Shown piece after piece: positions 2,341-60,310 of a stretch of 64,000 nucleotides of DNA; position 1 is the first letter of the stretch; the number at the start of each line of letters is the position of its first letter. The position numbers and the translations under genes are program-made. Below the pieces are notes generated by a model. That model did no database searches, had not been told where the DNA came from, and saw only the letters and a program-made list of their open reading frames with translations. Where the stretch lies: assembly GCA_039805565.1 (NCBI GenBank), contig JBDLTZ010000100.1, positions 3,487-67,486 on the forward strand, given 5' to 3'. The DNA comes from Chloroflexota bacterium. GTDB taxonomy: Bacteria > Chloroflexota > Chloroflexia > Chloroflexales > Roseiflexaceae.

Positions 2341-2555
2341 GCGGCCGGCGGCAGGGGGCGGGCCGCTGCCCCCTGCACCCCCCGGCCGGGGCCGTTGGCC
2401 CCTGGACCCCAAAGGGGAGCAGTACGAGACCGATATCGGCCGGCACGATAGATGAGCTCGCTGGGGCAGAAGATCTGCTTCTGCTACGACTGGGCAAGCT
2501 CGGATGGGGCACGCCGTAGCCAGTGCGGGAATTGCTGGTCGTCGGTCTGGTAGAG

Positions 2556-2705
2556 CCTCCCTTGCGGGGGAGGTCGGGAGGGGGCGCAAGCGCCCCTCCG
2601 GCGGGGAGGAGCGCGAGGAGGGCCGGAGCCCTCACTCGCCCACACGCACATCGCCTGCTGAAGGCGTAGCTGAGGAGCGCGAGGAGGGCCGCAGCCCTCC
2701 CTCGC
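2556..2705. repeat. Cluster of GC-rich hairpins, including two copies of a REP-like unit (GAGGAGCGCGAGGAGGGCCG..GCCCTC.CTCGC)
   Basis: Inverted repeats at 2556-2573, 2577-2599, 2613-2639 and 2679-2705. The direct repeat gaggagcgcgaggagggccg occurs at 2606-2625 and 2672-2691. Confidence 0.7.
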
Positions 2706-2731
2706 GCACAGCAGACCAAAGGAGAACGCCT

Positions 2732-3730
2732 ATGGCAGCCCAGCTGCCGCCCACATTCCGGGCCCTCGTCGTAGACCAGCGCGACGGGGCGTATGGCGCC
2801 GAGATCACAGATGTACCGACTGAGGCGCTACCCGCCGGCGACGTGCTCGTGTCCGTCGCCTTCTCCAGCCTCAACTACAAGGACGGCCTGTGCGTCACCG
2901 GGAAAGGTAAAGTGGCGCGCTCCCTGCCGATGATCCCCGGGATCGACCTGGCCGGCACCGTGATCGAGTCGAAGTCCCCGCTGTACCGACCCGGCAACGC
3001 GGTGCTGGTCACTGGCTGGGGCATCGGCGAGCGCCACTGGGGCGGCTACGCCACCCTCGCCCGCGTGCGCCCGGAGTGGCTCGTGCCTCTGCCGGACGGG
3101 CTGAGTCTGAGACAGGCCATGGGGATGGGGACGGCCGGCTTCACGGCGGCCCTGGCGGTCATGGCCCTCGAGGACGCCGGCGTCCGACCCGGCGAGCGCG
3201 AGGTGCTCGTCACCGGGGCCACCGGCGGCGTCGGGAGCGTGGCCGTGGCCATGCTCGCGCGCCTCGGCTACAACGTCACCGCCTCCACGGGGCGCCCCGA
3301 GCACCACGCGTACCTACGGTCCCTCGGCGCGCAGCAGATCGTGGACCGCGCCGAGCTCACGCAGCCCGGCCGCCCGCTGGAGAGTGAGCGATGGGCCGGC
3401 GCCGTGGACACCGTAGGCGGTGATACGCTGGCAGGTATCATCCGATCGGCGGCCTACTACGGCACGATCGCCGCCTGCGGCAACGCCGGGGGCGCGGCGC
3501 TCAGCACCACCGTTTTCCCCTTTATCCTGCGGGGGGTGCGCCTGATTGGGATCGAGTCCGTGATGTGCCCGGCCGAGCGCCGCCGCGCGGCATGGAGCCG
3601 CCTTGCCCGCGACCTGCCGCGCGATCTCCTCGACAACATGATCCAATCCGTACGGCTGGAGGATGTGCCGCGCGTCAGCGAGGAGATCGTCGCCGGGCAG
3701 GTGCGCGGCCGCATCGTCGTCGAGCTGTAG
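2732..3730 (+). CDS. YhdH/AcuI-type NADPH:quinone (acrylyl-CoA) oxidoreductase, MDR superfamily
   Basis: ORF 2504..3730. The ATG at 2732 is preceded by AAAGGAG, and the upstream part of the ORF runs through the hairpin/repeat cluster. The protein has FSSLNYKDGLC and the VTGATGGVGS Rossmann motif, and its length (332 aa) is typical of the family. Confidence 0.8.
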   Translation: MAAQLPPTFRALVVDQRDGAYGAEITDVPTEALPAGDVLVSVAFSSLNYKDGLCVTGKGKVARSLPMIPGIDLAGTVIESKSPLYRPGNAVLVTGWGIGERHWGGYATLARVRPEWLVPLPDGLSLRQAMGMGTAGFTAALAVMALEDAGVRPGEREVLVTGATGGVGSVAVAMLARLGYNVTASTGRPEHHAYLRSLGAQQIVDRAELTQPGRPLESERWAGAVDTVGGDTLAGIIRSAAYYGTIAACGNAGGAALSTTVFPFILRGVRLIGIESVMCPAERRRAAWSRLARDLPRDLLDNMIQSVRLEDVPRVSEEIVAGQVRGRIVVEL

Positions 3731-3732
3731 GG

Positions 3733-6700
3733 CTACGGGCAGGTCTCGCGGTAGCGGACGCCCGGCAGGTAGCGCTCCCACTCCGCGGCGGTCATGCTCC
3801 GCCCGGCCACCGCGCACGCGAGCCCAAGCAGCTCCCCCTGGTCGGCCGGGAGCTGCGCCTCCTGCGGCAGCGGGCGGGCCAGCTCCCACACGCGCGCCGT
3901 GCCGTCGCCGCTGCCGGTGACCGCCACCGGGCTACCCTCGGCGCTGATCGCCGCCGCGTTCACCGACCCCTCGTGGCCGCGCAGCAGGAGCGCCTGAGTC
4001 CCGGGGTCCTGCAGCGAGAGATCCCACAGCCGCGCCGTGTTGTCCTGGCTGGCGGTGAGCAGCCGGAGGCTGTCCGGCGCGAAGGCCAGCGCGGTGATTG
4101 CCCCGGTGTGACCGCGCAGCTCAGAGACCGCTGCGGCACTCTGGCCCCCCTCGACCTGCCACAGCCGCACCGTACCGTCGCGGGTGCCGTAGGCGATCCG
4201 GCTGCTGTCCGGGCTCACCGCCACCGTTGTGATGCCGTTGCCGCGCCCGCGCAGGATCTCCGGCCTGGTGCTGACGAAGCGGCCGTCGGCAATCTGCCAC
4301 AGGTGCGCATCACCGTCCACGCTGCCAGTTACGAACCAGCGCCCGTTCGGCGCGATCGCCGCCGTGGTCAGAGCGCCGCGCGGGTCGCTTGTGGTGAACG
4401 CACTGCCGGGATCGCTCAGGCGCCACAGCCGGCTCACCCCATCCGCTCCACCAGCCACGATCTGCTGTCCATCTGCACTCAGGGCTACCGCGCGCAGCGG
4501 GCTACGCCTGGAGCGCGGAGCCAGCACAGCCGGCGCGGCCGTGCCCTGGGTGCTCCAGACGCGCACGGTGCCGTCCTCGCTGGAGGTGGCTACGAAGCGG
4601 CCGTCGGCGCTCATGTCCATGTCCGTCACCGCGCCTCCGTGACCCGTGAGCTCGCGCGGCGCGGCCCCCGCGCCACGCAGGTCCCACAGGCGCGGAGTAT
4701 CAGCATCCTCGCCCGCGGTGGCCAGCCAGCGGCCGTCAGGACTCAGCTCCAACATTGTCACGGGGGCTGGGGCCGAGAGGCTCTGGCTGGGGGCGCCCGA
4801 CGCGGCAAGGTCCCACACCAGCACCGCCCCGTCCTCGGCCCCCGTCACCAGGGTGGCGCCATCACGCGAGACGGCGAGCGCCCGAATGGGGCCACTTGGC
4901 GCCACCAGGCCCTGCCCGCCAACGCGCGCAAGCTGGCCGCGCAGGGTGTCGTCGGCGATCGTGTCGAGCGGTGGGTCGGTCTGGCGGGCCACGTTGACCC
5001 CCTCGGAGGCCAGGAGCAGGCTGAGCTGCGGCTGCTGCTCAAAGACCGCCTGGGCCTCGGCGGCGAGCCGGCCGGAGGTGGCGGCGCGCTCGCCCTGGGT
5101 AGCGCGTGCGCGCTCGGCGACCGCCGTCGCCTGGTTGGCGATCGCCAGGGCCTCGCTGGTGGCGGCGGCGCGGGCGCTCTCACGGGAGCCAGCCTCGGCC
5201 GTCTGCAGCTCGACCGACTGCGCCTGGCTGGTCTGGGCGGCGGCCACGGCCGTGAACTGGGCCTCCGACGCCGCGGCGCGCTCGCGGTCGGCCACCTGGC
5301 GCTGCTGGTCCGCGGTGAAGGCCTGCTGGATCGCCAGGATCGAGAAGGCGATCGCCACGCCGCAGGCCACAGCCAGCGCCACAGCCAGAGCTCTGGCGCG
5401 TAGGGCCGCCCCGCGCTGGGTATCAGCCAGCTTCTCGGCCTGCTCGGCCTGGACCTGCGCGGCCCGGGCGAGCTGCTCGGCCTGGGCCTTCTGCACGCTC
5501 AGCGCCTCTGCCAGCTGGCGGTTCTGCTCGGCCTGGATCCAGCGTGACTCGGCCAGCTCCCGGGCCTGGCGCAGCTCACGCTGCTCGGCCTCGCGCCGCT
5601 GCCGCTCGGCCTCCTCGATGGCGGCGGCGCTCGCGTGCGTCAGCTCCGCCAGGGCCGGGGCATATCCCAGGTAGGCAGCCTCGGCGCTCACCAACCAGCG
5701 CTCAGCCTCCACGAGCTGGCTCTCGTCCAGCAGCCCCGCGCTGCCCCGCCCGAGCCGCACCCACTCGGCGGCCTTCGCCTCCAGCCGCCGCCTGGTCGCC
5801 ACGGCTGAGCGCTCGTCCTCCAGCCACTGCACCAGCGTCGGCCAGTTCCGCACCAGCGCCTCGTGCGCCAGCTCCACCTGAGCCAACGAGAGCGTGTCGC
5901 CCTCGGTCAGGCGCAGCAGCCGCGCCTGGACAAGCTTCTCCAGCACGCGGTCCACCCGGTCGCGCGCCTCGCCCCCCTGGTAGAGCACATCGCGGCGCAC
6001 AGGGTTGCTGGTGATCTCGAGGCCCTCGCCAGGACGCACGATCCGCAGCAGGATGCGGCGCGCAGTGACCTGGTCCTCGGGCAACAGGCTGTTGTAGAAA
6101 GCGTCGGCACTGCGCGCGAGGGCCAGCCGCCCGCCGCCCACGCGCCGGTAGGATTCCCAGGTGACGCGGTTGCGGTCGCGCTGCTCCCAGAGCTTGAGCA
6201 GGGTGAACTGGAGCAGCGGCAGCGCGGCCGGCTCGCCGAGCATGTCGTGCAGCAGGGCATCTACCACGCCCGGCTCGAACTTCAGGCCCACGAGCTCGGC
6301 CGGCTTCTCGATCGCCTCGCGCAGTTCGCTGGCGTTGAGCGGCATGAGCTGGACGCGGGTCCGCTCGAACCAGGCCTGGAGCGCCGGCGAGGTAGCGATG
6401 AAGCTCTCGAAGTCGCTCCGCATCGTGAGGACGATGAGGTGACGCGAGCCGTTCGGCTCCAGCAGCGCGAGCAGCCCATCCACGAAGGCCTGGCGAGCGC
6501 CCTCGTCCTCGCAGAGCGTGTAGAGCTCCTCGAACTGGTCGATGAACAGCACTGCCGGGGCGCCGCCGGTCTCGTCGAGCGCCCGCAGGAGCCAGGCCGG
6601 GTCCTCGCGCAGCCGGCGGGCGATGGCGGCGCTCTCCTCGGCAGGCTGGGACGAGGCCGCCGGGCTGGGGCTCTCGGCAGGCAGTCGGATCCCGAGCCGG

Positions 6701-7329
6701 CGCCGGAGCTGGCGGGCGAGGCTAAGGAGCGGCTCGGGTCCGGGGGTAAACGGCGGGACGTAGCGCCACTCGGCGCTTCCGAGCAGGGCGCCGTCCTTGA
6801 GCGCGGGGAGCAGACCGGCACGGATGACGGAGGACTTACCGCTACCCGAGGGCCCGACGAGCGCAAGCAGCGGCTGAGACTCGAGCTTCTGTACCAGCCA
6901 CTCGACCAGGCGGCGTCGGCCGTAGAAGGTATTCTGGTCGCGCTCGTTGAACGGGTCGAGCCCGAGGTAGGGGCAGGCATCGTCCGGGATCTCGGGCGCC
7001 TCGTTGGGGTCGAACTCCTCGAGCGTTGAGTCGGGCGGCTCGTAGCCGGCGCGGATCAGAATCGTGGACCAGTAGTCGAGCAGGCTCTGCGCCGCATCGC
7101 GCTCGCTGTCGTCGTCCAGGATAGCGCCCGCGGCCGTCCCGCGCTTGATCAAGTCCGCCGCGCGGGCGCAGAGCTCGGGCGTGTACCCCTCGCGCTGCGC
7201 CCGCTTCAGCAGGTCGGCGTGTGCGGCGCGCAGCGCGGCCAGCGAGGGGAATGGGTGCGGGGCAGCTCCGGCGGCTGGCTCCGCAGCCGATAGGCCGAGC
7301 GGTGGGACAGATCTATCGGTCTCGCTCAT
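3733..7329 (-). CDS. STAND-type P-loop NTPase with coiled coil, single TM helix and C-terminal WD40 beta-propeller (8 repeats)
   Basis: Walker A GPSGSGKSS lies at aa 159-167 (nt about 6829-6855) and the Walker B-like VLFIDQFEE at aa 260-268. An Ala/Gln/Glu-rich coiled coil spans aa 570-760, interrupted by the hydrophobic stretch ALAVALAVACGVAIAFSILAI (nt 5329-5391). Eight repeats ending in WD/WS/WR/WQ/WE span aa 812-1150. The C-terminal tail reads AAEWERYLPGVRYRETCP. The ATG at 7329 lies 18 nt after the CHAT gene stop, with GAGAGG upstream. Confidence 0.85.
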   Translation of the reverse strand: MSETDRSVPPLGLSAAEPAAGAAPHPFPSLAALRAAHADLLKRAQREGYTPELCARAADLIKRGTAAGAILDDDSERDAAQSLLDYWSTILIRAGYEPPDSTLEEFDPNEAPEIPDDACPYLGLDPFNERDQNTFYGRRRLVEWLVQKLESQPLLALVGPSGSGKSSVIRAGLLPALKDGALLGSAEWRYVPPFTPGPEPLLSLARQLRRRLGIRLPAESPSPAASSQPAEESAAIARRLREDPAWLLRALDETGGAPAVLFIDQFEELYTLCEDEGARQAFVDGLLALLEPNGSRHLIVLTMRSDFESFIATSPALQAWFERTRVQLMPLNASELREAIEKPAELVGLKFEPGVVDALLHDMLGEPAALPLLQFTLLKLWEQRDRNRVTWESYRRVGGGRLALARSADAFYNSLLPEDQVTARRILLRIVRPGEGLEITSNPVRRDVLYQGGEARDRVDRVLEKLVQARLLRLTEGDTLSLAQVELAHEALVRNWPTLVQWLEDERSAVATRRRLEAKAAEWVRLGRGSAGLLDESQLVEAERWLVSAEAAYLGYAPALAELTHASAAAIEEAERQRREAEQRELRQARELAESRWIQAEQNRQLAEALSVQKAQAEQLARAAQVQAEQAEKLADTQRGAALRARALAVALAVACGVAIAFSILAIQQAFTADQQRQVADRERAAASEAQFTAVAAAQTSQAQSVELQTAEAGSRESARAAATSEALAIANQATAVAERARATQGERAATSGRLAAEAQAVFEQQPQLSLLLASEGVNVARQTDPPLDTIADDTLRGQLARVGGQGLVAPSGPIRALAVSRDGATLVTGAEDGAVLVWDLAASGAPSQSLSAPAPVTMLELSPDGRWLATAGEDADTPRLWDLRGAGAAPRELTGHGGAVTDMDMSADGRFVATSSEDGTVRVWSTQGTAAPAVLAPRSRRSPLRAVALSADGQQIVAGGADGVSRLWRLSDPGSAFTTSDPRGALTTAAIAPNGRWFVTGSVDGDAHLWQIADGRFVSTRPEILRGRGNGITTVAVSPDSSRIAYGTRDGTVRLWQVEGGQSAAAVSELRGHTGAITALAFAPDSLRLLTASQDNTARLWDLSLQDPGTQALLLRGHEGSVNAAAISAEGSPVAVTGSGDGTARVWELARPLPQEAQLPADQGELLGLACAVAGRSMTAAEWERYLPGVRYRETCP

Positions 7330-7347
7330 CGGCAGAGCCTCTCGCTG

Positions 7348-9420
7348 TCAGGAGGTCAGGAGCCGCAGCACAGCCGCGAGCGGCTCGCCGACCTTGCGCA
7401 GGTCGTCGGTCATCTTCTTCAGCTCGATGTCCACCCGGTAGAAGCGGTCGCCGGCCTGGCGGCGGAACCGGCGGAAGAAGTGACGCGTTTTGGCAGCGTC
7501 GGAGGCGGCGAGCGCCGCGTCGAGCTTGGCCGCGTCGGCCCGGAGCGCGCTCGTCCAGGTCTCCTCGATGCCTGTGTACAGCGGCGCGGCGAGGTCGCGC
7601 AGGTCCTCCCAGGAGAGCTCGAGCTCGCTGAGGTCGGCGTCGAGCGTGGCCTCGATCCGCCGCATCTCCAGGTCCACCGCCTGCCACGAGTCGTGCTCGC
7701 CCACCAGGGCGCCGAGCCGCACGCTCAGCCCGGCGAGGGCCACCACGCCCATCTCGAACTGGGCGACTTTGTCGGCGTCGAGCCGCAGCGAGGGCAGCCG
7801 CTCGCGCACGCGGGTGAGGCCGTGGGCCAGCGCCCCGAGGCGCAGCGAGCGGGCGGCAGCGTTGAGGCGGGCGTTGACCTGGGCCGGCTGGATGGTGAGC
7901 ACGCGGTTCAGCAGCCGCACGCCCTTCTTCAGCTGGCGCAGATCGAGCGTCTCGATCGCCCCTCCCAGGTCCGCGCGTGCAACCCCCAGATCCCACACCC
8001 AGGCCGTCTCGCCGGTGGCAAGGGTGGCGCGCCCCGCCACGCGCTCGAGCTGGTCCACGATCCCCTGGAGCGTGATCTCGTAGTTGCTCAGGTTCTCCCA
8101 GGCGCCCTCGTCGTCGGGCAGGCGGCGCACCTCCTGGACGATCGGGCTGTAGCAGTGGAACTGGAGCGAGTGCAGCTGATCGTGGATATCCTTGTAGTCC
8201 GCCATCAGCGCGATCTGCTCGCTGGCCGCCAGGAAGTCGGCGCGGAAGGCGATGACGTCCTCGCGCACGTCGTCGGCGGTGGCGATCAGGTCGCCGAGCG
8301 CGACGAGGCCGCTGCCGATCGAGTGGCTGCTCGCCGCCTGCACCGGGGGCGGCGTGGGCAGCAGGGGCGCGGCAGGGGCGGGCGGCTCGAAGAGGCGGCC
8401 GTCGGGGGCGCGGGTGTAGATGACCGGGATCCCCCAGTCGGGCCGGCGCAGCCCGGTGACGTTCATCACGGCGCGACGACCCTCGGTGACGCAGGCGTCG
8501 ATCGGTAGGGCCTCAGCGAGCACACGGTAGAACTCGGCGGCGAAGGCGCGGGTGGCCTCCTCAGGCACCTGGAACTGCATCGCTACCACCGCGGGCACCT
8601 GGGCGCGGATGAGCGCGGGGGCCACGGCGCGGAAGGAGTCGGTGGCGAGCTCGCCGCTGCCGCAGGCGTCGAGGACCACCAGGCGCAGGCCGCTGCGGTT
8701 GAGCATGACGTTGAGCTGGAGCGCGCTCACCGGCTCAGCCTCGCCGAACACATCCTCGAACAGCAGCGTCCCGCCGGCGTCACCTGAGGCACCGTGGCCG
8801 ACGAAGTGCCAGATGTGGAACCCCTCGCGCAGCAGCCGCTGGAGCTTGGCGGTGGTCAGGTGCGGCTCGACGGTCACCTCGACGAGGCCGGGGCGTGTGG
8901 CGAGCGCCTCCTGGACGGCCGCCAGCTCGCGCTCGACCTCGGCTGGCGGCGGGGTCTGCGCGGCGCTGAGCAGCACCTTGAGCGGCAGGGGCGCAGCGAG
9001 CGAGGGGATGCGGTCCTGCTGCGGCAGGTAGCGCACCACCGGGGCGTCGAGCAGCGCGAGCGGCCCCTGGTCCGGGTCGTAGAGGAACTCCCACGGCATG
9101 GCGTGAACGCCGGCCTCGGCGGGGGGGGCGGTGAGGCGGAGGCGCAGCCCCTGGTCCGGGCCGAGGATGCCCTGGCTACGGGTGTACACGTCCTTGGTAG
9201 GCCCGGCGAAGACGGCGAGGAAGAGCTCCCGGCCGATCTGCACGAGCGCCGCCTCATCAGTGTCTAGCCGCCGCAGCCGCCCGAGCAGCACCGCAAAGTC
9301 CTCCCCGCGGGGAAGCGTAAGGTAATCGCTGGCCTCGCCGCCCGGGCCGCGCACCGTAAGGGCGTAGCGTCCGGCGTCGAGCGCGCCGATGGCGATCTCG
9401 AAATCGAGGTACGATTTCAT
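7348..9420 (-). CDS. CHAT-domain (caspase-like) protease fused to an unassigned ~330-aa alpha-helical C-terminal domain
   Basis: A caspase-fold His/Cys dyad is present: WHFVGHG (His209, nt 8794-8796) and VVLDACGSG (Cys253, nt 8662-8664). The N-terminus MKSYLDFEIAIG...YALTV is typical of CHAT proteins. Residues 365-690 have no motif I recognise. Confidence 0.85.
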   Translation of the reverse strand: MKSYLDFEIAIGALDAGRYALTVRGPGGEASDYLTLPRGEDFAVLLGRLRRLDTDEAALVQIGRELFLAVFAGPTKDVYTRSQGILGPDQGLRLRLTAPPAEAGVHAMPWEFLYDPDQGPLALLDAPVVRYLPQQDRIPSLAAPLPLKVLLSAAQTPPPAEVERELAAVQEALATRPGLVEVTVEPHLTTAKLQRLLREGFHIWHFVGHGASGDAGGTLLFEDVFGEAEPVSALQLNVMLNRSGLRLVVLDACGSGELATDSFRAVAPALIRAQVPAVVAMQFQVPEEATRAFAAEFYRVLAEALPIDACVTEGRRAVMNVTGLRRPDWGIPVIYTRAPDGRLFEPPAPAAPLLPTPPPVQAASSHSIGSGLVALGDLIATADDVREDVIAFRADFLAASEQIALMADYKDIHDQLHSLQFHCYSPIVQEVRRLPDDEGAWENLSNYEITLQGIVDQLERVAGRATLATGETAWVWDLGVARADLGGAIETLDLRQLKKGVRLLNRVLTIQPAQVNARLNAAARSLRLGALAHGLTRVRERLPSLRLDADKVAQFEMGVVALAGLSVRLGALVGEHDSWQAVDLEMRRIEATLDADLSELELSWEDLRDLAAPLYTGIEETWTSALRADAAKLDAALAASDAAKTRHFFRRFRRQAGDRFYRVDIELKKMTDDLRKVGEPLAAVLRLLTS

Positions 9421-9459
9421 GCGGTGAGCGTGTCAAGTGAGTGCGGTGATGATACGCTC

Positions 9460-9468
9460 AGTATAGCA
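9460..9468 (-). promoter_or_regulatory. Candidate extended -10 promoter element (TGcTATACT) upstream of the CHAT/STAND operon
   Basis: The reverse complement of 9460-9468 reads TGCTATACT, about 40 nt upstream of the ATG at 9420. The same TGnTATAMT motif recurs upstream of other genes in the window. Confidence 0.4.
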
Positions 9469-9539
9469 TGGTGGTGCGACGAGGTGAAGGGTCGACGAGT
9501 GCTGAGGGCCGAAGACCGTGAGCGCCCTGTAGTGAGTCA

Positions 9540-9567
9540 CCCCCTCTCCCTGTCGTGGGAGAGGGGG
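9540..9567. repeat. REP-like hairpin CCCCCTCTCCC-tgtcgt-GGGAGAGGGGG
   Basis: Perfect 10-11 bp inverted repeat, 10 nt downstream of the stop of the 9577..9984 gene. Related copies lie at 38241-38265 and 60275-60310. Confidence 0.8.
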
Positions 9568-9576
9568 CAGTGGCCG

Positions 9577-9984
9577 CTACTCGTCGTCCGCGTCGCCCAC
9601 GCGCTCGGGGTTGGTGTCGCGGCCGATCAGCCGGTTCCAGAGCTGGTAGTCCACCTCGCTCTTGGGAATATACAGGTTCCCCTCACCGGCCGTCTGGTCG
9701 CCACGGGCCGTGAACTCGCGCAGCTGCGGGTCCTGGAAATCCACGTAGGTGGCGCCCTGCTGGAGCCGCTCGCCGGTAGGCACGATCGGGATGCGCTTCA
9801 GCTCGTCGTCGGTGAAGCCAGGGATCTGGCGGTGCATCCCCTTGTGCTCGTAGGCGTTGCGCGTGCGCTGGTCGGTGCGCTCGCCGTGGTGGCCGATGTT
9901 CTGGCCGGCGCGCGGGTCGGGGTTCAGGTCGCGCCGCCACTCCTCGGGGTGCTGCTCGCCCGGCGTATGCTGTTTCTCGGTCAT
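9577..9984 (-). CDS. Hypothetical protein (135 aa, charged, His-rich N-terminus)
   Basis: Clean ORF with a strong AGGAGG located 6 nt upstream of the ATG at 9984. No family recognised. Confidence 0.6.
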   Translation of the reverse strand: MTEKQHTPGEQHPEEWRRDLNPDPRAGQNIGHHGERTDQRTRNAYEHKGMHRQIPGFTDDELKRIPIVPTGERLQQGATYVDFQDPQLREFTARGDQTAGEGNLYIPKSEVDYQLWNRLIGRDTNPERVGDADDE

Positions 9985-10196
9985 GTGTGTACCTCCTGGA
10001 GCTTACCGGGTTGCAGGAAGCGTGCCCCGAAGGGAGGGGTGGGCCGGCCCGGCACACCCCCCTCTGCCGCCGGCCATGGATATGCTCAACGGTGGTATTG
10101 TATCCACCGCGCCCGCCGGCCCCGAGCCGGGGTGCCTGCCCCGAACACACCTCTGGCCCGCCGGGCGGGCTGATACCGTTCACCAGGAGGCTATCT

Positions 10197-11021
10197 ATGG
10201 CGCTCAACCAACCCTACCCGGACCTCGAGGAGCTACTCGCGTCGATCGGCGAGGCCGGCACGCGCCTGGCGGCGATCAACGCCAGCGAGGGCGGGGCCGG
10301 CAATATCTCGATGTACATCGGCTGGCCTATCGAGGTGCGCCGCCGCTTTCCGATGGCCGAGCCCTTCACCCTGCCGCAGCCCGCCCCCGGCCTGGCCGGT
10401 GGCCTGGTGATCGTCACCGGCTCGGGGCGGCGCCTGCGCGACATCCACACCAGCCCGGACGCCAACCTGGCGGCGGTGGCGATCGGCGAGGGCGGGAGGA
10501 CGGCGCAGCTCTACACCTCGCCGCGCCGCCTGTTCCAGCGCGTCACCAGCGAGTTCAACTCACACCTGGCCGTGCACCAGGACCAGGTGGCGCGCACTGG
10601 CACCAACTTTCTCGCCCTGATCCACGCCCAGCCGCCGCACCTGACCTACCTGAGCCATATCCCGGCCTACCGCGACCAGGCGTTCTTCAACCGGCGGCTC
10701 ATGCGCTGGGAGCCGGAGACGATCCTGAACCTGCCGCAGGGCATCGGCGTGCTGCCGTACTGCCTGCCGGGCTCACCGGCTATGATGGAGGCCAACATCG
10801 CCGGGCTGCGCGAGCACAACGTGGTGCTCTGGAGCAAGCACGGCGTCATGGCGCGCTCGGAGCTCTCGGCCACGCGCGCGGCCGACCGCATCGAGTACGC
10901 GGAGACGGCCGCGCTCTACGAGACGATGGACCTGGCGAACGGGCAGCGCGGCGAGGGGCTGACCGACGACGAGCTGCGCGAGATCGTGCGCGCCTTCGGA
11001 GTGCAGACGACACTGATCTGA
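10197..11021 (+). CDS. Class II aldolase/adducin family protein, rhamnulose-1-phosphate aldolase (RhaD)-like
   Basis: ORF 9987..11021. The ATG at 10197 is preceded by AGGAGG. The 274-aa protein has blocks that look collinear with RhaD as I recall it: GGAGNIS, VIVTGSGRRLRDI..PDANLA, TSEFNSHL, GIGVLPYCLPGS, VVLWSKHGVM, LTDDELREIVRAFGV. Confidence 0.7.
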   Translation: MALNQPYPDLEELLASIGEAGTRLAAINASEGGAGNISMYIGWPIEVRRRFPMAEPFTLPQPAPGLAGGLVIVTGSGRRLRDIHTSPDANLAAVAIGEGGRTAQLYTSPRRLFQRVTSEFNSHLAVHQDQVARTGTNFLALIHAQPPHLTYLSHIPAYRDQAFFNRRLMRWEPETILNLPQGIGVLPYCLPGSPAMMEANIAGLREHNVVLWSKHGVMARSELSATRAADRIEYAETAALYETMDLANGQRGEGLTDDELREIVRAFGVQTTLI

Positions 11022-11142
11022 ACGGCGAATGGACAAGACCGAGGCCCTCTCGGCGGTCGCTGGCGACGGCGGTCAACGCCCCCTCGACATCGAGCGGTCC
11101 GCTCACAGTGCGAAGCTGGTCCGTGTGGCATTCATCGCGTCG

Positions 11143-11345
11143 GGGGGTGCGCCTGGAGATCAGCCGCGACCCGGCGCCTGTTCCAGCCGTTCGTGCAGCT
11201 GGCCCCGCAGCTAGAGCGCGAGCAGGTCGGCACAGGGCTGGGCCCGGTACTGCTGAAGCAGTTGGCCGAGCTCCACGACGGCGGGGTCAGTGCGGTGAGT
11301 GCGACGGGGGCCGGGACCAGCTTCACAGTAACGCTGCCGTGGTGC
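11143..11345 (+). pseudogene. Degenerate fragment of a histidine-kinase HATPase_c domain
   Basis: Split over two frames: GGVRLEISRDPAP.. / ..FQPFVQLAPQLEREQVGTGLGPVLLKQLAELHDGGVSAVSATGAGTSFTVTLPW. This parallels the C-terminus of the downstream kinase (GGAVRLEIT...FQPFVQVEGG...GGVGLGLTLVQRLVDLHGGSVSLESTPGEGSRFSVHLPW), but the G1 box region is missing. Confidence 0.55.
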
Positions 11346-11539
11346 CGGCCGTGCCATACTCCCGTGCACCCCTGTGTGCTGCGTAGGCCATCCGTGACGC
11401 GAGCGTACGTGAGGTGTATGATGTCCACGTGCGGAAAACTCCGGATGGGCAGGCGCCTTCCCGCATGGTATGCTCCTCACATTGGCGCTCGCGCTTGATA
11501 CGCTGTCGCAGCTGTCAGTTACTGTTACAGGACTTGACT

Positions 11540-14065
11540 ATGACAACCGCAGCGATGACCCACGCCGAGCTCGTCGCCGAGGTGGAGCGGCTGCGCGCGC
11601 AGATTCGCTCCCTCGGCGACGAGCCGCACGACGACGCCCCGCCCCTCGGCTCTGACCGGCCACCTGTGCCGCCTGAGCACCTCCTACGCGAGCGCGAGAT
11701 CCAGCTGGCCCTGGCCCTCGACATTGCCGAGCTCGGCACCTGGCGCCACAATCTAGTCACCGGCGCCATCGCGCTCGATGCCCGCACCCGCGCCCAGTAC
11801 GGCATCGTGGCCGACTCGTACACGATCGCCGACGTCCTGGCCCGCATCCACCCCGACGACGTCGCGTACTTCCAGCGCACCCTCGCCGCCGCGCTGGCCT
11901 CGTCGAGCGATGGCCGCTACCTGGCGGAGTACCGGGTCGTCCATCTGGACGACAGCGTGCACTGGCTGACAGTGCGCGGCCAGGTGGTCTTTGACAGCTC
12001 CGGTGACGCCCGACGGCCAGTGTTCCGCTACGGCACGGTTCAGGACATCACCGAGCGCAAGGCGACCGAGGCGGCACTCCAGGAGGCGCGCACCGCTGCG
12101 GAGGAGCACGCCGCGCTGCTCGACACCCTGATCGCCCACGCGCCCGTCGGCATCGCCTTCGTGGACACCGACATGCGCTACCAACACATCAACCGCTACC
12201 TCGCCGCCATCAACGGCCCGCCGCCCGAGGCGCACCTTGGCCGTACCTTCCGCGAGGTGCTTCCAGAACTGGCCCCTCAGCTTGAGGCGTTCTACCAGCG
12301 AACCCTGGGCGGCGGTCAGCCGGTGCTCGACCTCGTGATCAGCGGCGAGACATCGGCCGCTCCGGGCGAGCAGCGCTCGTGGATCGCCAGCTTCTTCCCC
12401 ATCCGCACTGGCGACGGGCGACTACTCGGCGCAGGAACGATCGTCAGCGACATCACCGAGCGCCGGAGTCTGGAGCAGAAGCTGATGGAGGAGCACCGGC
12501 AGCGCGAGAGCATCCTGCAGACGCTCCAGGAAGCGCTGTTCGCTTTCCACGCCGACGGCACCTTCGTGCTGCTCAACGACCTCGCGCGGCAGGCCATCGG
12601 GGGCGCCGAGCCGCCACCCTCGGTTCACGCGCTGGCGGCCGCCCCCGTCACATTCTTCACGGCAGAGGGGCTAGCGCTACCCAGAGAAAAGCTCCCCGCT
12701 CTGCGCGTCCTCCGCGGCGAGACCTTCACCAACACCGAGCTGCGCCTGCAGCATCCAGGGCAAGAGGCGCGCTGGCTGAGCTTCAGCGGCGCGCCGGCCT
12801 ACGATGAGACAGGTCAGCTCGCTCTCGGGGTAGTCACGGCGCACGACATCACGGCACGCAAGCTGGCCCAGGCCGGGCTCCAAGCAAAGGCCGAGGCCCT
12901 CAGCCGCAGCAATGCCGAGCTCGCGCGCGCAGTGCGCTTCAAGGACGAGTTCCTGGCGATGATGAGCCACGAGCTGCGCACGCCGCTCACCCTGGTCCTT
13001 GGCCTGACCGAGATGCTGACGGAGGAGAGCTACGGCCCCATCACCCAGGAGCAGCGCGAGGCGCTGGCGCGCGTGGAGCTCGGTGGGCGCCACTTGCTCG
13101 CCCTGCTCTCCGACATTCTCGACCTGTCGCGCATCGAGGCGGGCGCGGAGCAGCTGGAGATCGAGGATCTGGACATCGATCTGGTGGCCGCCTTCGCCAT
13201 CCACACCGTCCAGCACCGCGCGGCACAGAAGGGGATCCAGCTGTCCCACGCGATAGACCCGGCCGTGGAGACGATCCGCGGCGACGAGCGCAGGCTGCGA
13301 CAGATCCTGGTCAACCTGCTCGACAACGCGGTGAAGTTCACACCAGAGGGCGGCGCGGTGCGGCTAGAGATCACAGCCGATCCAGACCAGGAGCAGGTGC
13401 ACCTGAGCGTGAGCGACACCGGCATCGGCATCGCGCCGGAGGACTTCGACCGTCTCTTCCAGCCCTTCGTGCAGGTAGAGGGCGGGCTGAGGCGCGCGTA
13501 CGGCGGGGTCGGGCTGGGTCTGACGCTGGTGCAGCGGCTGGTGGATCTGCACGGCGGCAGCGTCAGCCTGGAGAGCACGCCGGGCGAGGGGAGCCGCTTC
13601 AGCGTCCACCTGCCCTGGTCGCCGCGTACACACACCGCACCGACGACGCCCGTGCCGCCCCCTGAGGCAGCTGCGTCACTGTCTGGCACGCACGTGGTGG
13701 TGGTGGACGACGACGAGATGGCGCTCGAGCTGTACAGTGACGTGCTGACGCGGGAGGGGTGCGTGGTGTTGACAGCGCGGACCGGTCTGGAGGGGCTGGC
13801 GCGGGTGCGGGAGGCACGGCCAGACGTGGTGGTGCTGGACATCCAGCTGCCGGAGCTCGATGGGCTGGGCGTGCTCCGGCAGCTGCGGGGGGAGGCGGCG
13901 ACGGCGGTGCTGCCGGTGATCGCGCTGACGGCGCTGGCGATGCCGGGCGACCGCGAGCGCTGCCTGGCGGCAGGCGCGACGCACTACCTGACGAAGCCGG
14001 TGGCGCTGCAGACACTGCGCGCGACGGTCGCGGCGTGCGCGCGGGGAGCAGACCAAGCCAGGTGA
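11540..14065 (+). CDS. Hybrid sensor histidine kinase (coiled coil, multiple PAS, HisKA, HATPase_c, receiver)
   Basis: ORF 11414..14065, with ATG 11540 (MTTAAMTHAEL) preferred. It has the H-box MSHELRTPL, N-box LVNLLDNAVKF, G-boxes DTGIGI and GGVGLGL, and a C-terminal receiver (VVVVDDDE...DIQLPELDG...KP). Confidence 0.85.
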   Translation: MTTAAMTHAELVAEVERLRAQIRSLGDEPHDDAPPLGSDRPPVPPEHLLREREIQLALALDIAELGTWRHNLVTGAIALDARTRAQYGIVADSYTIADVLARIHPDDVAYFQRTLAAALASSSDGRYLAEYRVVHLDDSVHWLTVRGQVVFDSSGDARRPVFRYGTVQDITERKATEAALQEARTAAEEHAALLDTLIAHAPVGIAFVDTDMRYQHINRYLAAINGPPPEAHLGRTFREVLPELAPQLEAFYQRTLGGGQPVLDLVISGETSAAPGEQRSWIASFFPIRTGDGRLLGAGTIVSDITERRSLEQKLMEEHRQRESILQTLQEALFAFHADGTFVLLNDLARQAIGGAEPPPSVHALAAAPVTFFTAEGLALPREKLPALRVLRGETFTNTELRLQHPGQEARWLSFSGAPAYDETGQLALGVVTAHDITARKLAQAGLQAKAEALSRSNAELARAVRFKDEFLAMMSHELRTPLTLVLGLTEMLTEESYGPITQEQREALARVELGGRHLLALLSDILDLSRIEAGAEQLEIEDLDIDLVAAFAIHTVQHRAAQKGIQLSHAIDPAVETIRGDERRLRQILVNLLDNAVKFTPEGGAVRLEITADPDQEQVHLSVSDTGIGIAPEDFDRLFQPFVQVEGGLRRAYGGVGLGLTLVQRLVDLHGGSVSLESTPGEGSRFSVHLPWSPRTHTAPTTPVPPPEAAASLSGTHVVVVDDDEMALELYSDVLTREGCVVLTARTGLEGLARVREARPDVVVLDIQLPELDGLGVLRQLRGEAATAVLPVIALTALAMPGDRERCLAAGATHYLTKPVALQTLRATVAACARGADQAR

Positions 14066-14415
14066 CGAGCCAGCGCTTCGCCCCCATTTGAAAAGGTCAC
14101 TATCCTTGCACTTTTTACCAGCGCCACGCGGCTAACTGGCAGAACAGCGTCGCCGTGGTTTGGCCAGCACGGATGCGCACGCTGGTGGTCACCGTATGCA
14201 CCCGGACCGTCCGTCCCGAGCCCTCCTGGGGGCCAGTCAACCGGTTGATAGTCGGCGTCGGTCAGGCCAGCGGCATGGCTGGTGAGATCAACCCAGAGCC
14301 AGTCCTGTTCAGCGTCTGGGTCAGCAACGCGGATGGCGCGATTGCCGCGCAACCCGGTCGTGATGTGGTCCAGTCTGATCACGAATTCCCAATTCTGTCG
14401 CCTCAGCTGTGCCAC
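13984..14415 (-). CDS. Hypothetical ORF downstream of an RHS-core fragment (doubtful)
   Basis: The ORF starts 12 nt after the stop of the RHS fragment frame, but its 3' end overlaps the kinase gene by about 80 nt. No family recognised. Confidence 0.25.
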   Translation of the reverse strand: MAQLRRQNWEFVIRLDHITTGLRGNRAIRVADPDAEQDWLWVDLTSHAAGLTDADYQPVDWPPGGLGTDGPGAYGDHQRAHPCWPNHGDAVLPVSRVALVKSARIVTFSNGGEALARHLAWSAPRAHAATVARSVCSATGFVR

Positions 14416-14427
14416 GATAGACCTCGA

Positions 14428-14661
14428 CTAGCTCATGACCGTGTGCAGCTGCACGCACAGCCGTCCCAGCACCCGTCGCAAATGGAACAGCAGCGCCACC
14501 AACATCCGCTTGAGATCCTGCGGGTTTGCTGGCCCACCATCACACGTCGTCCATGCACTTGTCGCGACCGAATCATTCGGCGCGATCGTGAGCGGCCCTG
14601 AGCCAGGCACGATGGTATCTGCGGAGATGAAGCGGCCGAGGGCCGGATCGTAGTAGCGGGC
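14428..14661 (-). pseudogene. Orphan fragment of an RHS/YD-repeat core C-terminus
   Basis: The minus-strand translation ARYYDPALGRFISADTIVPG....GGPANPQDLKRM carries the RHS-core signature (RYYDPxxGRFxSxD ... NPQxLNRY). It then diverges and stops after about 20 codons. No upstream YD repeats and no toxin tip are present. Confidence 0.6.
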
Positions 14662-14695
14662 ATTATTAGGACAGCAGGGGCGATTTGAGCCGTTC

Positions 14696-16246
14696 CTACG
14701 CCCGAATCACCGTTATGACACGTCCCGAGGGAGCGGTAACCTCATCAGCGCGTGTACGCTCAGCAATCGCTGGCTGTCCCCGTCGTTGGTCGAACACCAC
14801 CAGCCACCCGGTGTCCAGGCTCAACCCTGCCAGGTAGCCATCGAGCTGCGCGACCCCCTCTTCCCGCGGGTCTGCTCGACCATCACGCCACACCTTCAGC
14901 TCGATCGGCAGCCGCTCTCCCCGATAGCTCAGCAGCAAATCGACTCGGTCGATGCCGACCATACTCTCGCGCTGGACCTGCCCGCCCCCGTTCGCCACCC
15001 GATCCAGGAACGCCTGCAGGACGAGCTGTGGCGCGATCTCGTGATACGGTGTCGTCCCAAGCAGTGGCTGTCCGTGCTCGCGCCAGAAGTGCAGAAACGC
15101 CGTCAGCAACGCATTCCGGTCCAGACGTCCGTCTAACGTCAGCCAGGTCGGCCTGAGCGCCGGCAGGAAGGCGCGTGTGGTCGTCGTGAGCGAGCGCGGG
15201 ATGACCGCCTCGTAGATCGGATTGGCGATCACCAGCCCCTGTGCCGGGTCCATCCGCACGAGCCCCAGATCCTGCACAAAGCGAATGTCATCCACAGGCA
15301 GGTCGGAGGGGATCGTGCCGGCGAGGAGCGGCTCGATAACCGCCCGGATACGCGGCTCGCGCAACCGGTCAGCCAGGCTGTCAAGGTGCGTCTCCTGCCG
15401 CGCGATGATGACCGCTTTGGCTTGGTCGATGATCACGTCGGTGATAGCTTGGCTGCGATCCAGCATGAGCTCTTCGACGGCGACCTTGGCGAGCGCGTTG
15501 ACGAGCCAGGGCTGCCCCTGGGTCAGCGTAAAGGCGTGCGCCAGCGCTGCCGGCGTGAACAGCTGTCCCGTCGCCGTCGTGTGCTGCTGATAGAGGGCCT
15601 CCACATCGGCGGCGCTGAAGTTCCCCAGGGTGAGCGAACGGGCTTTGATGTTGAAGGGGCTGGCGGTGGTGAGCCGCTCACTCCCACCAGCAGCAACCTT
15701 ATAGTCGCGTACGTCGCGGAGCCCAATCAAGGCAAGCGCCCAGGGGAAGTCGGTTGGGCGCCGTCGGTAGCCATCACGAAGCTGGCGCAACACCGAGATG
15801 AGTGCATCGTTCTCGAGGGCATCGATCTCATCAAGAAAGACGACGAGCGGGCGTTGACAGGTCTGCGACCAGGCACGTAGGGCGGCACCAATACGACGAC
15901 CGGGAGCGGCATTTGGCCACACGGGTGGCTGCAGGTCAGGCGGGAGCTGATGCTCAGCATCATCGCGCCAGGAGTCCAGTATCGCGTTCTCTGCCTGTCC
16001 GGGGTCATCTGAAAAGGGTGCGCCGACTTCGGCTGAGACAATCACCGCAGCGTAGCGGCCGGAGACGGTGAGCAGGCGGCCGAGCTCGAGCATCGCGGTG
16101 GTCTTGCCGCTCTGGCGGGGGGCGTGGAGCACGAAGTAGCTCTGCTGGTCGATCAGCCGCATGACTTCGGGCAGGCGCTCGGTCGCGGGCAGCATGTAGT
16201 GAATGTCAGGGCGACAGGGGCCGGCGACGTTGAACCAGCGAGCCAT
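14696..16246 (-). CDS. Predicted AAA-ATPase with C-terminal PD-(D/E)XK nuclease-like domain
   Basis: The N-terminus reads ARWFNVAGPCRPDIHYMLP, followed by Walker A APRQSGKTT and Walker B VVFLDEIDAL. The C-terminus IDRVDLLL...LPIELKVW resembles a D..E.K nuclease motif. ATG 16246 is preferred over GTG 16255 because GGAGAAAGG lies upstream. Confidence 0.7.
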   Translation of the reverse strand: MARWFNVAGPCRPDIHYMLPATERLPEVMRLIDQQSYFVLHAPRQSGKTTAMLELGRLLTVSGRYAAVIVSAEVGAPFSDDPGQAENAILDSWRDDAEHQLPPDLQPPVWPNAAPGRRIGAALRAWSQTCQRPLVVFLDEIDALENDALISVLRQLRDGYRRRPTDFPWALALIGLRDVRDYKVAAGGSERLTTASPFNIKARSLTLGNFSAADVEALYQQHTTATGQLFTPAALAHAFTLTQGQPWLVNALAKVAVEELMLDRSQAITDVIIDQAKAVIIARQETHLDSLADRLREPRIRAVIEPLLAGTIPSDLPVDDIRFVQDLGLVRMDPAQGLVIANPIYEAVIPRSLTTTTRAFLPALRPTWLTLDGRLDRNALLTAFLHFWREHGQPLLGTTPYHEIAPQLVLQAFLDRVANGGGQVQRESMVGIDRVDLLLSYRGERLPIELKVWRDGRADPREEGVAQLDGYLAGLSLDTGWLVVFDQRRGQPAIAERTRADEVTAPSGRVITVIRA

Positions 16247-16281
16247 ACCAAGCACCTTTCTCCGAGGGAGACAGTGGTGTC

Positions 16282-16290
16282 AGTATACCA
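16282..16290 (-). promoter_or_regulatory. Candidate extended -10 promoter (TGgTATACT) for the AAA-ATPase gene
   Basis: The reverse complement reads TGGTATACT, 36 nt upstream of ATG 16246. Confidence 0.4.
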
Positions 16291-16358
16291 CGCCAGAGGT
16301 GGGCGCAGGAGAGTGGGCGAAGCGCGTTAGAATGCGGTAAAGCCGGTCTTCATCGAGC

Positions 16359-38183: not shown

Positions 38184-38240
38184 CGACACGTCCCTCAAAC
38201 AACAGGGCTGGCGCGCTCATCAGCACCCTCTCCCCCTGCC

Positions 38241-38265
38241 CCCCTCTCCCACACCGGGAGAGGGG
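38241..38265. repeat. REP-like hairpin CCCCTCTCCC-acacc-GGGAGAGGGG
   Basis: Perfect 10-bp inverted repeat, 58 nt after the lutC stop. It belongs to the same family as 9540-9567. Confidence 0.8.
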
Positions 38266-60274: not shown

Positions 60275-60310
60275 TCCCCCTCTCCTGCGGCAGGGAGAGT
60301 GGGCCGGGGG
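60275..60310. repeat. REP-like element (CCCCCTCTCC-tgcggc-AGGGAGAGTGGGCCGGGGGTGAAGG)
   Basis: Imperfect copy of the 9540 and 38241 hairpin family, located after the ggt stop and a short TGA-heptamer run (60237-60262). Confidence 0.65.

Follow-up and report, generated by a model that had tools for sequence, protein, structure and literature searches.

A widespread two-gene nSTAND1 module with an unannotated helical domain and a membrane-anchored NTPase, a candidate conflict system of Chloroflexota, Cyanobacteria and Acidobacteriota

The nSTAND1 clade of STAND NTPases and the EAD principle, by which the NTPase itself bears an effector or an EAD as an N-terminal fusion, were described by Kaur, Iyer, Burroughs & Aravind (eLife 2021, PMC8195603) and Kaur et al. 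(eLife 2020, PMC7159879), and in the same papers Aravind and colleagues predicted NTP-dependent conflict or apoptosis-like systems for multicellular bacteria. Caspase-STAND-WD40 proteins were described as "bacterial Apaf-1" proteins (Nature 2026, PMC13581612) in a survey of 589 STAND clades, nSTAND included, the main text of which discusses cytosolic sensing only. In BASS, effector-NLR gene pairs, CHAT and TIR effectors among them, are coupled by short amyloid motifs (Dyrka et al., 2020, bioRxiv 10.1101/2020.01.06.895854). Here, a pair of genes from a filamentous bacterium of the Roseiflexaceae (Chloroflexota) was compared with these systems. The pair lies on the minus strand of a 64,000-nucleotide stretch, hereafter the window (assembly GCA_039805565.1, contig JBDLTZ010000100.1). 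Gene A (7348..9420) starts with ATG and encodes a protein of 690 amino acid residues that consists of a CHAT protease and a putative helical adaptor domain. Gene B (3733..7329), also with an ATG start, encodes a membrane-spanning nSTAND1 NTPase with a WD40 propeller of 1198 residues. The features of A and B given below are on the minus strand as well. The A-B family is a widespread two-gene nSTAND1 system, probably a variant of the known conflict systems, with an unannotated, putative helical adaptor and an NTPase anchored by a transmembrane (TM) helix.

The N-terminal lobe and the CHAT caspase-like domain of A (residues 1–345; 8386..9420) included a match to Pfam CHAT PF12770 of clan CD at residues 90–323 (E = 2.7e-27, 96.4 bits, cut-off 24). 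The catalytic residues His209 in HFVGHG (codon 8794..8796) and Cys253 in LDACGSG (codon 8662..8664) were each kept in 33 of the 35 full-length A orthologues. A is thus a member of the CHAT family, for which protease activity is predicted. A Pro-rich linker of variable length (residues 346–365; 8326..8385), which falls in the variable columns ~400–430 of the A alignment, separates the CHAT part from a conserved all-alpha "constant" domain of 325 residues with a YKDxHDxLH motif (residues 366–690; 7351..8325). The AlphaFold2 (AF2) model of this helical domain had a pLDDT of 95.1, a pTM of 0.88 and nine long helices. The C-terminal ~340 residues had no Pfam match even at E ≤ 10, Foldseek found no PDB match of the helical domain at E ≤ 0.001, and its profile matched nothing below E = 0.02 among PDB sequences. 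The best Foldseek matches were de novo bundles, McpZ, AhlB and IpaD; with TM-scores ≤0.3 they were insignificant and no homology was drawn from them. The invariant polar residues of the helical domain were K410, H413 and D414, which are in the YKDxHDxL motif, as well as H576 and Q580. The "HD" doublet or "HDxxH" was considered as an HD phosphohydrolase or zincin-like site and rejected, as neither Pfam nor Foldseek supported it and the second His was often Gln. Similarly, the label "HPt domain" that one source attaches to the homologue P0068 was not reproduced by Pfam.

Despite the lack of an annotation, the helical domain is common. Among 1.84 billion representatives, clustered at 50% identity, a cut-off of E ≤ 1e-3 gave 1,921 clusters with the domain, of which 1,004 were left at E ≤ 1e-30, and it was C-terminal in 150 of the 150 best matches listed. 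Full-length relatives of A (~690 residues) reached down to 40% identity. The closest was a protein from a Chloroflexota metagenome-assembled genome (MAG), P0001, which was 100% identical, and the other relatives were from Roseiflexaceae and Kouleothrix. The A-type CHAT module, at 58–70% identity, was also fused to NB-ARC-TPR, TIR, SH3_3 and nSTAND1-FGE-sulfatase (P0076-P0119); in the paralogue P0119, CHAT was fused directly to nSTAND1. The sequences indicate that one CHAT lineage has probably been shuffled briskly among STAND systems, mostly those of Roseiflexaceae and other Chloroflexota where the source was named.

The N-terminal part of B contained a conserved three-helix bundle (N-domain; residues 27–117; 6979..7251), a putative docking domain for A. 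Its AF2 model had a pLDDT of 88 and helices at B residues 30–47, 51–67 and 74–93 (model residues 11–28, 32–48 and 55–74). G68, R77, Q81 and W87 of the N-domain were invariant in 47 orthologues, and the domain was present in 116 of the top 120 B homologues. It is not a Death fold, and a weak Foldseek resemblance to MIT/Vta1 was not taken as homology. The nSTAND1 NTPase module followed (residues 120–528; 5746..6972), with a match to PF20703 over profile positions 1–376 of 379 (E = 2.6e-113, 379.9 bits, cut-off 27.1), a match that all 47 B orthologues shared; by sequence, no PDB relative of this region was found. In the Walker A motif GPSGSGKSS (residues 159–167; 6829..6855), G162, G164, K165 and S166 were conserved in 47/47 orthologues. 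In the Walker B motif VLFIDQFEE (residues 260–268; 6526..6552), D264 was conserved in 46/47 and E268 in 47/47. The arginines R304 and R337 were also invariant (47/47). B is thus an nSTAND1-clade STAND NTPase, an assignment for which, as for that of A to the CHAT family, the hidden Markov model and the sequence motifs agreed.

The C-terminal half of B began with a charged, Ala/Gln/Glu/Arg-rich, helical coiled-coil-like segment without a Pfam match (residues ~560–640; 5410..5652). It was followed by a single, uncharged TM helix with a mean hydropathy of 2.65 and an Arg-rich flank before it (residues 647–673; 5311..5391), and by an Ala/Gln/Thr/Glu-rich low-complexity stalk, also without a Pfam match (residues 674–800; 4930..5310). 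Eight WD40 blades (residues ~801–1151; 3877..4929; Pfam WD40 E = 1.2e-58) form a putatively extracytoplasmic sensor, and the C-terminal tail (3736..3876) had two Cys residues (LACAVAGR...EWERYLP...ETCP) and was kept in the WD40-type partners of loci L001 and L060. The WD40 part was the fastest-diverging part of B: its identity was 59% in L005, the closest orthologue, vs 76–78% for the remainder of the protein, and 38–40% vs 66–67% in L001 and L012. Near-identical WD repeats at the DNA level, a mark of repeat-driven diversification as in fungal NLRs, were not found in B. An earlier reading of the DNA, which was made from the sequence alone, had described a CHAT domain with an intact His/Cys dyad, a helical region of ~330 residues without a nameable motif, and a STAND-type P-loop NTPase with a long coiled coil, a single TM helix and a WD40 propeller of eight blades. 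All of these elements were recovered here.

To survey the gene pair, one genome per species was searched with the helical domain of A alone (an alignment of 8 closer sequences). This search returned 58 loci, and all of those with enough downstream DNA carried an N-domain/nSTAND1 gene directly downstream. Altogether, the gene for the helical-domain protein was immediately 5' of a gene for an N-domain/nSTAND1/TM protein in 65 of 65 related loci from Chloroflexota, Cyanobacteria and Acidobacteriota. The Chloroflexota loci were from Roseiflexaceae, Anaerolineae and Caldilineae, and the cyanobacterial loci from heterocystous or filamentous genera, namely Nostoc, Anabaena, Calothrix, Brasilonema and others. 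The Acidobacteriota loci were from Thermoanaerobaculia, Vicinamibacterales, Pyrinomonadaceae, Blastocatellia and Bryobacterales, and many of them were from MAGs of unknown habit. One locus contig carried two assignments, Desulfobacteraceae in one MAG and Anaerolineae in a second. Among the loci examined, no helical domain was seen that lacked its nSTAND1 partner. Moreover, a helical-domain gene was present upstream (hmmsearch E 1e-69 to 1e-113) of each of three homologues that were picked via B, in which the C-terminal domain was CAP, PD40 or not recognised.

The spacing between the two genes was mostly from -4 to ~+20 nucleotides in the related loci, and in roughly half of them the genes overlapped by 4 nucleotides. 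In the window, they are separated by 18 nucleotides (7330..7347) with a ribosome-binding-like motif, GAGAGG, 8 nucleotides before the ATG of B, exactly the co-directional arrangement and gap that had been noted before. For an A orthologue with 59% identity, the following nSTAND1-WD40 gene overlapped the stop codon of the A gene. For one with 46% identity (L002), the partner was a 639-residue nSTAND1 protein without WD40, of which the long terminal hydrophobic stretch was read as two TM helices. The genomic contexts of these two orthologues were unrelated. Thus, the A and B genes behave as an operon and are a conserved module and obligate neighbours, and both the neighbourhood and the catalytic motifs, on which the sequence-only reading had staked its description, are maintained among relatives. 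Every central element of that description stood. One correction to it is that the family is defined by the helical region, the N-domain and the TM helix: the helical domain and N-domain-nSTAND1-TM are the constant core, and CHAT and WD40 are interchangeable.

Several copies of the module were disrupted or were found beside mobile elements. The nSTAND1 partners at L017 (8906-11074, Brasilonema sp. CT11) and L027 (2857-5502, an Anaerolineales MAG) had an in-frame stop inside the NTPase region and are either pseudogenes or sequencing errors. On one scaffold of Calothrix sp. PCC 7103, two TIR-helical genes ~280 kb apart (L045 and L046) gave identical tblastn matches to the query, and in both the following nSTAND1 gene stopped after 199 residues. 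This suggests that a copy was duplicated and disrupted, perhaps in connection with a mobile element. Some module copies adjoined mobile-element genes (L064, 5065-7635 on the minus strand, and the flanks of L001 and L065), and most others were among housekeeping genes. The mobile-type neighbours included genes for a Prim-Pol/D5_N primase, DDE transposases and MazE and DUF433/DUF5615 toxin-antitoxin proteins.

The N-terminal part of A varied substantially among the homologues. Among 51 locus-derived proteins, it was CHAT in 23, TIR in 9, EAD10 in 4, EAD1 in 3 and EAD7 in 1, and the rest were short or unassigned. Among 95 unbiased representatives, it was CHAT in 20, TIR in 18, EAD7 in 12, EAD1 in 4, EAD10 in 3 and EAD9 in 1, with one each of a protein kinase, a Swt1-like HEPN, a trypsin, an FHA and a BTAD domain. 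A fixed position N-terminal to the helical domain thus holds many alternative effector or EAD domains, as in EAD systems. At the cyanobacterial EAD10-type loci L016, L020 and L021, the neighbours included EAD10-NACHT and EAD10-WD40 proteins as well as one in which EAD10 was the sole Pfam domain. Near EAD10-type loci, a LexA-DNA-binding/TIR protein was also found. Additional EAD copies were therefore present at the EAD10-type loci; the window locus, with its fused CHAT, falls outside such a comparison.

A third arrangement was found at L038, L040 and L060, where the N-terminus of A was only a Gly/Asn-rich stretch of ~50 residues and a separate CHAT gene followed B. A short Gly/Asn-rich motif was common to this N-terminus and to the C-terminal tail of the CHAT protein, with Smith-Waterman z values vs shuffles of 15.6, 6.9 and 3.7 in the three loci; in L040, IGGDVFTGGKQVGVDTGSISNVSGGQINAAAGHI was aligned with IQGDVFTGGKKSGVSIGSISNVSGGQLNVAGGDI. 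Given that effectors appear to arrive by fusion (as in the window), via EADs or via a short shared motif, the helical-domain protein would thus be a hub for effectors.

The domain after the TM helix of B was polymorphic as well. WD40 followed the TM helix in 22 of 47 B proteins. Others had TPR, SH3_3 behind Pro/Thr-rich linkers, repeats that were Asp-box-like by eye or a weak trypsin match, and further variants had PD40/Tricorn/DPP-IV propellers, CAP (YkwD), an S8 peptidase, CarboxypepD_reg or FGE-sulfatase. A GH25 muramidase-like segment was found after the TM helix among the WD40 repeats of the intact 1585-residue L038 protein (9034-13791; B residues 1121–1349), and the equivalent segment of L060 (12399-13100) matched cellosyl, PDB 1JFX (E = 6e-17). 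The B gene of L060 appeared to be split into two overlapping open reading frames (ORFs), 8960-12025 and 11889-13835, for which a frameshift is possible.

A TM segment was found at the equivalent position in 55 of 63 B sequences, and at least 4 of the 8 others were truncated or ran off the contig end. It was usually preceded by an RRLR-type motif. Within 15 residues of the TM segment, the 55 related B proteins had 264 Lys and Arg residues upstream vs 133 downstream. Given that the NTPase must be cytoplasmic, this positive-inside bias and the types of domain found after the TM segment suggest that the N-terminus of B is probably inside and its C-terminus outside, with the variable domain extracytoplasmic. 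The domain types in question include the wall-binding SH3_3, a muramidase, CAP, an S8 peptidase and the TolB-like PD40.

The EAD-coupled nSTAND1 systems are among the closest described ones. They share with the A-B family the nSTAND1 clade, a polymorphic effector position with caspase/CHAT, TIR and EAD1/7/10, extra EAD genes nearby, and variable C-terminal domains including FGE-sulfatase. EAD systems are enriched in multicellular bacteria, and the A-B family was found in filamentous taxa as well as in many Acidobacteriota MAGs of the kind mentioned above. Different from the EAD systems, in which the effector or EAD is part of the NTPase polypeptide, in the A-B family it is on a separate protein with an undescribed helical domain, and the NTPase has a three-helix N-domain instead. 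In addition, a TM helix between the NTPase and the C-terminal domain is not reported for EAD systems in the passages of PMC8195603 and PMC7159879 that were consulted.

The EACC1-caspase system (Kaur et al., 2020, PMC7159879) is similar in that it has two genes, is membrane-associated, includes a caspase-superfamily protease, is prevalent in multicellular bacteria and sometimes comes with STAND NTPases and with TM helices that lead into an extracellular domain. However, its 5' gene encodes EACC1, a small protein with a single TM helix, and its caspase is constant. In the A-B family, the product of the 5' gene is the protease-adaptor, the NTPase carries the TM helix, and it is the caspase-like domain that can be swapped. 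The EACC1 system is from actinobacteria and proteobacteria, different from the three phyla of the A-B family. The A-B pair was rejected as an EACC1-caspase system because it has no EACC1 protein: its 5' gene encodes the 690-residue CHAT-helical protein, and no hydrophobic segment is visible in the product of the preceding ORF (9577-9984).

Similar to Apaf-1-like STANDs, Avs and bNACHT, the A-B pair combines a STAND NTPase, a WD40/TPR sensor and a caspase-like/TIR effector, with an expected logic of ligand-induced oligomerisation. Each of those proteins, however, is one cytosolic polypeptide by which phage proteins are sensed inside the cell, whereas A and B are two proteins, one of which spans the membrane, with an NTPase of another clade (comparison with the main text of PMC13581612). 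The BASS pairs also have an effector encoded beside an NLR-like NTPase and coupling by terminal elements, to which the Gly/Asn-rich motif of L038, L040 and L060 is similar. The BASS motif joins effector and NLR directly, whereas the Gly/Asn-rich motif links a CHAT protein in trans to the helical adaptor and not to the NTPase. A strict BASS pair was rejected for the window, where CHAT and the adaptor are one protein and hence no motif is common to A and B. The eukaryotic apoptosome (Apaf-1/caspase-9, CARD-CARD) is similar as an analogy only, in that a WD40 STAND recruits a separately encoded caspase-family protease via an N-terminal helical adaptor. It uses homotypic Death-fold adaptors, whereas A and B have a 325-residue helical domain and a three-helix bundle, respectively, and an NTPase that is of another clade and spans the membrane. 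HetF (NCBIfam NF045509) was also rejected as an identity of A, with 59.6 bits vs a cut-off of 1200 and a partial match to the CHAT core only.

PADLOC-DB 2.0 had no system-specific match to A or B, including Avs and bNACHT. Its generic matches were chat (1.9e-5), SAVED_CHAT (2.9e-4), HEAT-ARM_XIII via the WD40 region, and the P-loop to mad3/mad8 (~1e-3). In the literature on nSTAND1, transmembrane CHAT-STAND and Chloroflexi CHAT-WD40 proteins, no description of the A-B pair was found. This agrees with the earlier statement that the pair is not a named, characterised system.

The repertoire of the effector slot, the wiring into EAD networks and the NTPase clade place the A-B pair among conflict or apoptosis-like systems. 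The reading that we favour, with a probability of about 0.55, is that A and B are the two components of an NTP-dependent conflict module that belongs to the Aravind "EAD" type, which would serve immunity or regulated cell death and have a transmembrane STAND receptor. The candidate conflict or signalling system that had been proposed from the sequence gains support from the same CHAT/TIR/EAD slot, EAD wiring and nSTAND1 clade. This reading builds on the anatomy of the two proteins, their linkage, the polymorphism of the effector and sensor slots, the conserved catalytic residues and TM helix, and the topology indicators observed above. A bolder form, which we put forward tentatively and at less than even odds, is that this is a large family of transmembrane NLR-like receptors, in which a surface sensor that diversifies rapidly would be wired through the TM helix to a STAND switch that recruits death effectors via a new adaptor pair. 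With the same reservation, this pair would be the 325-residue helical domain and the three-helix N-domain, and the effectors would be CHAT, TIR and others that arrive via EADs.

The mechanism that we infer covers the physical contact of A with B as well as the direction in which the signal runs, the kind of stimulus and the result for the cell. B would be a single-pass protein with its three-helix N-domain, nSTAND1 module and coiled coil in the cytoplasm and its stalk and WD40 propeller directed outward. A would be cytoplasmic, with CHAT tethered via the Pro-rich linker to the helical domain. The ectodomain of B would detect a ligand or an envelope perturbation, and the signal would pass through the TM helix and the coiled coil to the nSTAND1 module, which would exchange its nucleotide and oligomerise. 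The clustered N-domains would then gather A via its helical domain, and CHAT (or TIR) would be activated by proximity and might cleave cellular targets or a downstream toxin. Finally, the affected cell of the filament would arrest or die.

Several results weigh against the conflict-module reading with its transmembrane receptor. Two of the 35 A orthologues had degenerate CHAT residues. The module was usually among housekeeping genes, with only scattered PADLOC matches in 126 neighbouring ORFs, and the pair itself had no system-specific PADLOC match. No relative of the A-B family was found in the viral contigs searched, and a comparison of A with B for a shared homotypic adaptor revealed no sequence similarity. 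Some B proteins lacked an ectodomain (L002, with 639 residues, and several homologues of 570–660 residues), so sensing from outside is not universal in the family. In characterised STAND proteins, WD40 and TPR are classically cytosolic sensors, and we know of no STAND protein that signals across a membrane.

A rival reading is non-immune transmembrane signalling at the envelope or between cells of filamentous bacteria, in which the outside domain would monitor the wall, the septum or a neighbour, the NTPase would be the switch and CHAT would process a regulator, as HetF-type CHAT proteases do in development, without killing. Such signalling fits flanks that are housekeeping rather than defence genes, a phyletic range that is mainly filamentous Chloroflexota and Cyanobacteria, and ectodomains such as SH3_3 and GH25 that bind or cut the cell wall. 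The rare kinase, FHA and BTAD domains in the N-terminal slot also fit it. The weak partial match of A to HetF points the same way, although its score is far below the cut-off of that model. The slot, however, is mostly occupied by CHAT, TIR and EAD, together with HEPN and trypsin, which is the signature of conflict effectors. EAD10 connects the module to networks that include NACHT and TIR proteins, and the pseudogenised and duplicated copies suggest the turnover of conflict genes. We thus consider non-immune signalling unlikely.

We likewise hold it improbable that a cytosolic cue is sensed by the helical domain of A or by the NTPase, with the TM helix as an anchor or a membrane-perturbing effector and the post-TM domain as a wall anchor. 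The short B variants that retain TM helices without an ectodomain would be explained, and K410, H413, D414, H576 and Q580 of the helical domain could form a putative binding site. According to the main text of PMC13581612, moreover, the characterised bacterial STANDs all sense cytosolic phage proteins. The post-TM slot, however, is sensor-like in its polymorphism and is the fastest-evolving part, whereas the helical domain is constant, which is unusual for a pathogen sensor, and a single TM helix in the middle of a protein would be an inefficient pore former. Chance adjacency of unrelated CHAT and WD40-STAND paralogues without functional coupling is effectively excluded, for, although both families are highly paralogous in Chloroflexota, 65/65 loci in three phyla keep the pair although their contexts differ, the stop and start codons of the two genes frequently overlap, and the helical domain was never seen without its partner.

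At the window locus, the neighbours of the pair encode a biotin carboxylase, an aldehyde dehydrogenase, a Zn-ADH-type oxidoreductase, a class II aldolase and a PAS histidine kinase, so that ordinary metabolism genes do flank it, as had been stated. Upstream of A, a promoter-like, sigma-70-like site with a TG-extended -10 element, TTCACC-17 nt-TG-c-TATACT (9488..9460, minus strand), was found by consensus match only. The pattern, of which the TGcTATACT part had been pointed out before, had a single match in 6.3 kb vs 0.1 expected in shuffles. A G+C-rich hairpin (9541..9566) lies between this site and the upstream ORF, 10 nucleotides past the stop of the latter at 9577, and is probably a terminator or an insulator. 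Its stem, CCCCTCTCC(C) ... GGGAGAG(GGG), recurred with differing loops at 38239-38265 and, slightly diverged, at 60277-60302. There are thus 3 copies in 64 kb, whereas chance would give 0 of the exact pattern, and this hairpin family may be REP-like or terminator-like repeats of this genome.

The claim that the pair is an inserted module bounded by a REP hairpin was not upheld. The hairpin is placed directly behind the upstream gene and is one of a small repeat family of the window, and the G+C of the pair shows no anomaly in a window of ~70% G+C. Moreover, the closest relative, L005, at 76% identity, retains the convergent oxidoreductase neighbour, which speaks for vertical inheritance in the clade and against an insertion of recent date.

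Other observations were made elsewhere in the window. The ORF immediately upstream of the pair (9577-9984, minus strand, 135 residues) was rich in charged residues, had no Pfam match and showed no hydrophobic segment in its sequence. In an over-extended ORF at 2504-3730, "EEREEGRSP" was translated twice, ~25 residues apart (window ~2560-2730), which indicates that the intergenic region 2266-2731, upstream of the oxidoreductase start at ~2732, holds what appears to be a short direct DNA repeat. In addition, the G+C fell from ~0.70 to ~0.64 at 14000-16300, and a minus-strand gene of 519 residues (14696-16255) there, which matched AAA_35, AAA_22 and AAA_16 weakly, is possibly an ATPase gene that was acquired separately.

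To our knowledge, the experimentally understood STAND/NLR immune receptors, bacterial as well as eukaryotic, are all soluble cytosolic sensors. The A-B family retains both the STAND switch and the slot for death effectors, and it has a conserved TM helix between the switch and a polymorphic domain at the sensor position, in many cases one of a typically extracytoplasmic type. A transmembrane STAND receptor would surprise specialists, and what goes beyond the anatomy is put forward here as inference. The family places a sizeable group of domains without a Pfam, PDB or Foldseek relative in a context that is linked to function, and it offers clean point mutants as well as natural modular variants, such as those with CHAT or TIR and those with or without an ectodomain. 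If the topology and the coupling hold, STAND oligomerisation could be driven from the other side of a membrane, effectors would be recruited by a new adaptor pair in addition to Death-fold, EAD and amyloid-motif coupling, and filamentous bacteria could tie surface events to cell-autonomous death. If the transmembrane-receptor reading is true, bacteria would merge the logics of surface pattern recognition and of cytosolic NLRs, which are separate in eukaryotes, and suicide could follow cues from outside, such as phage adsorption, wall damage or contact with non-kin.

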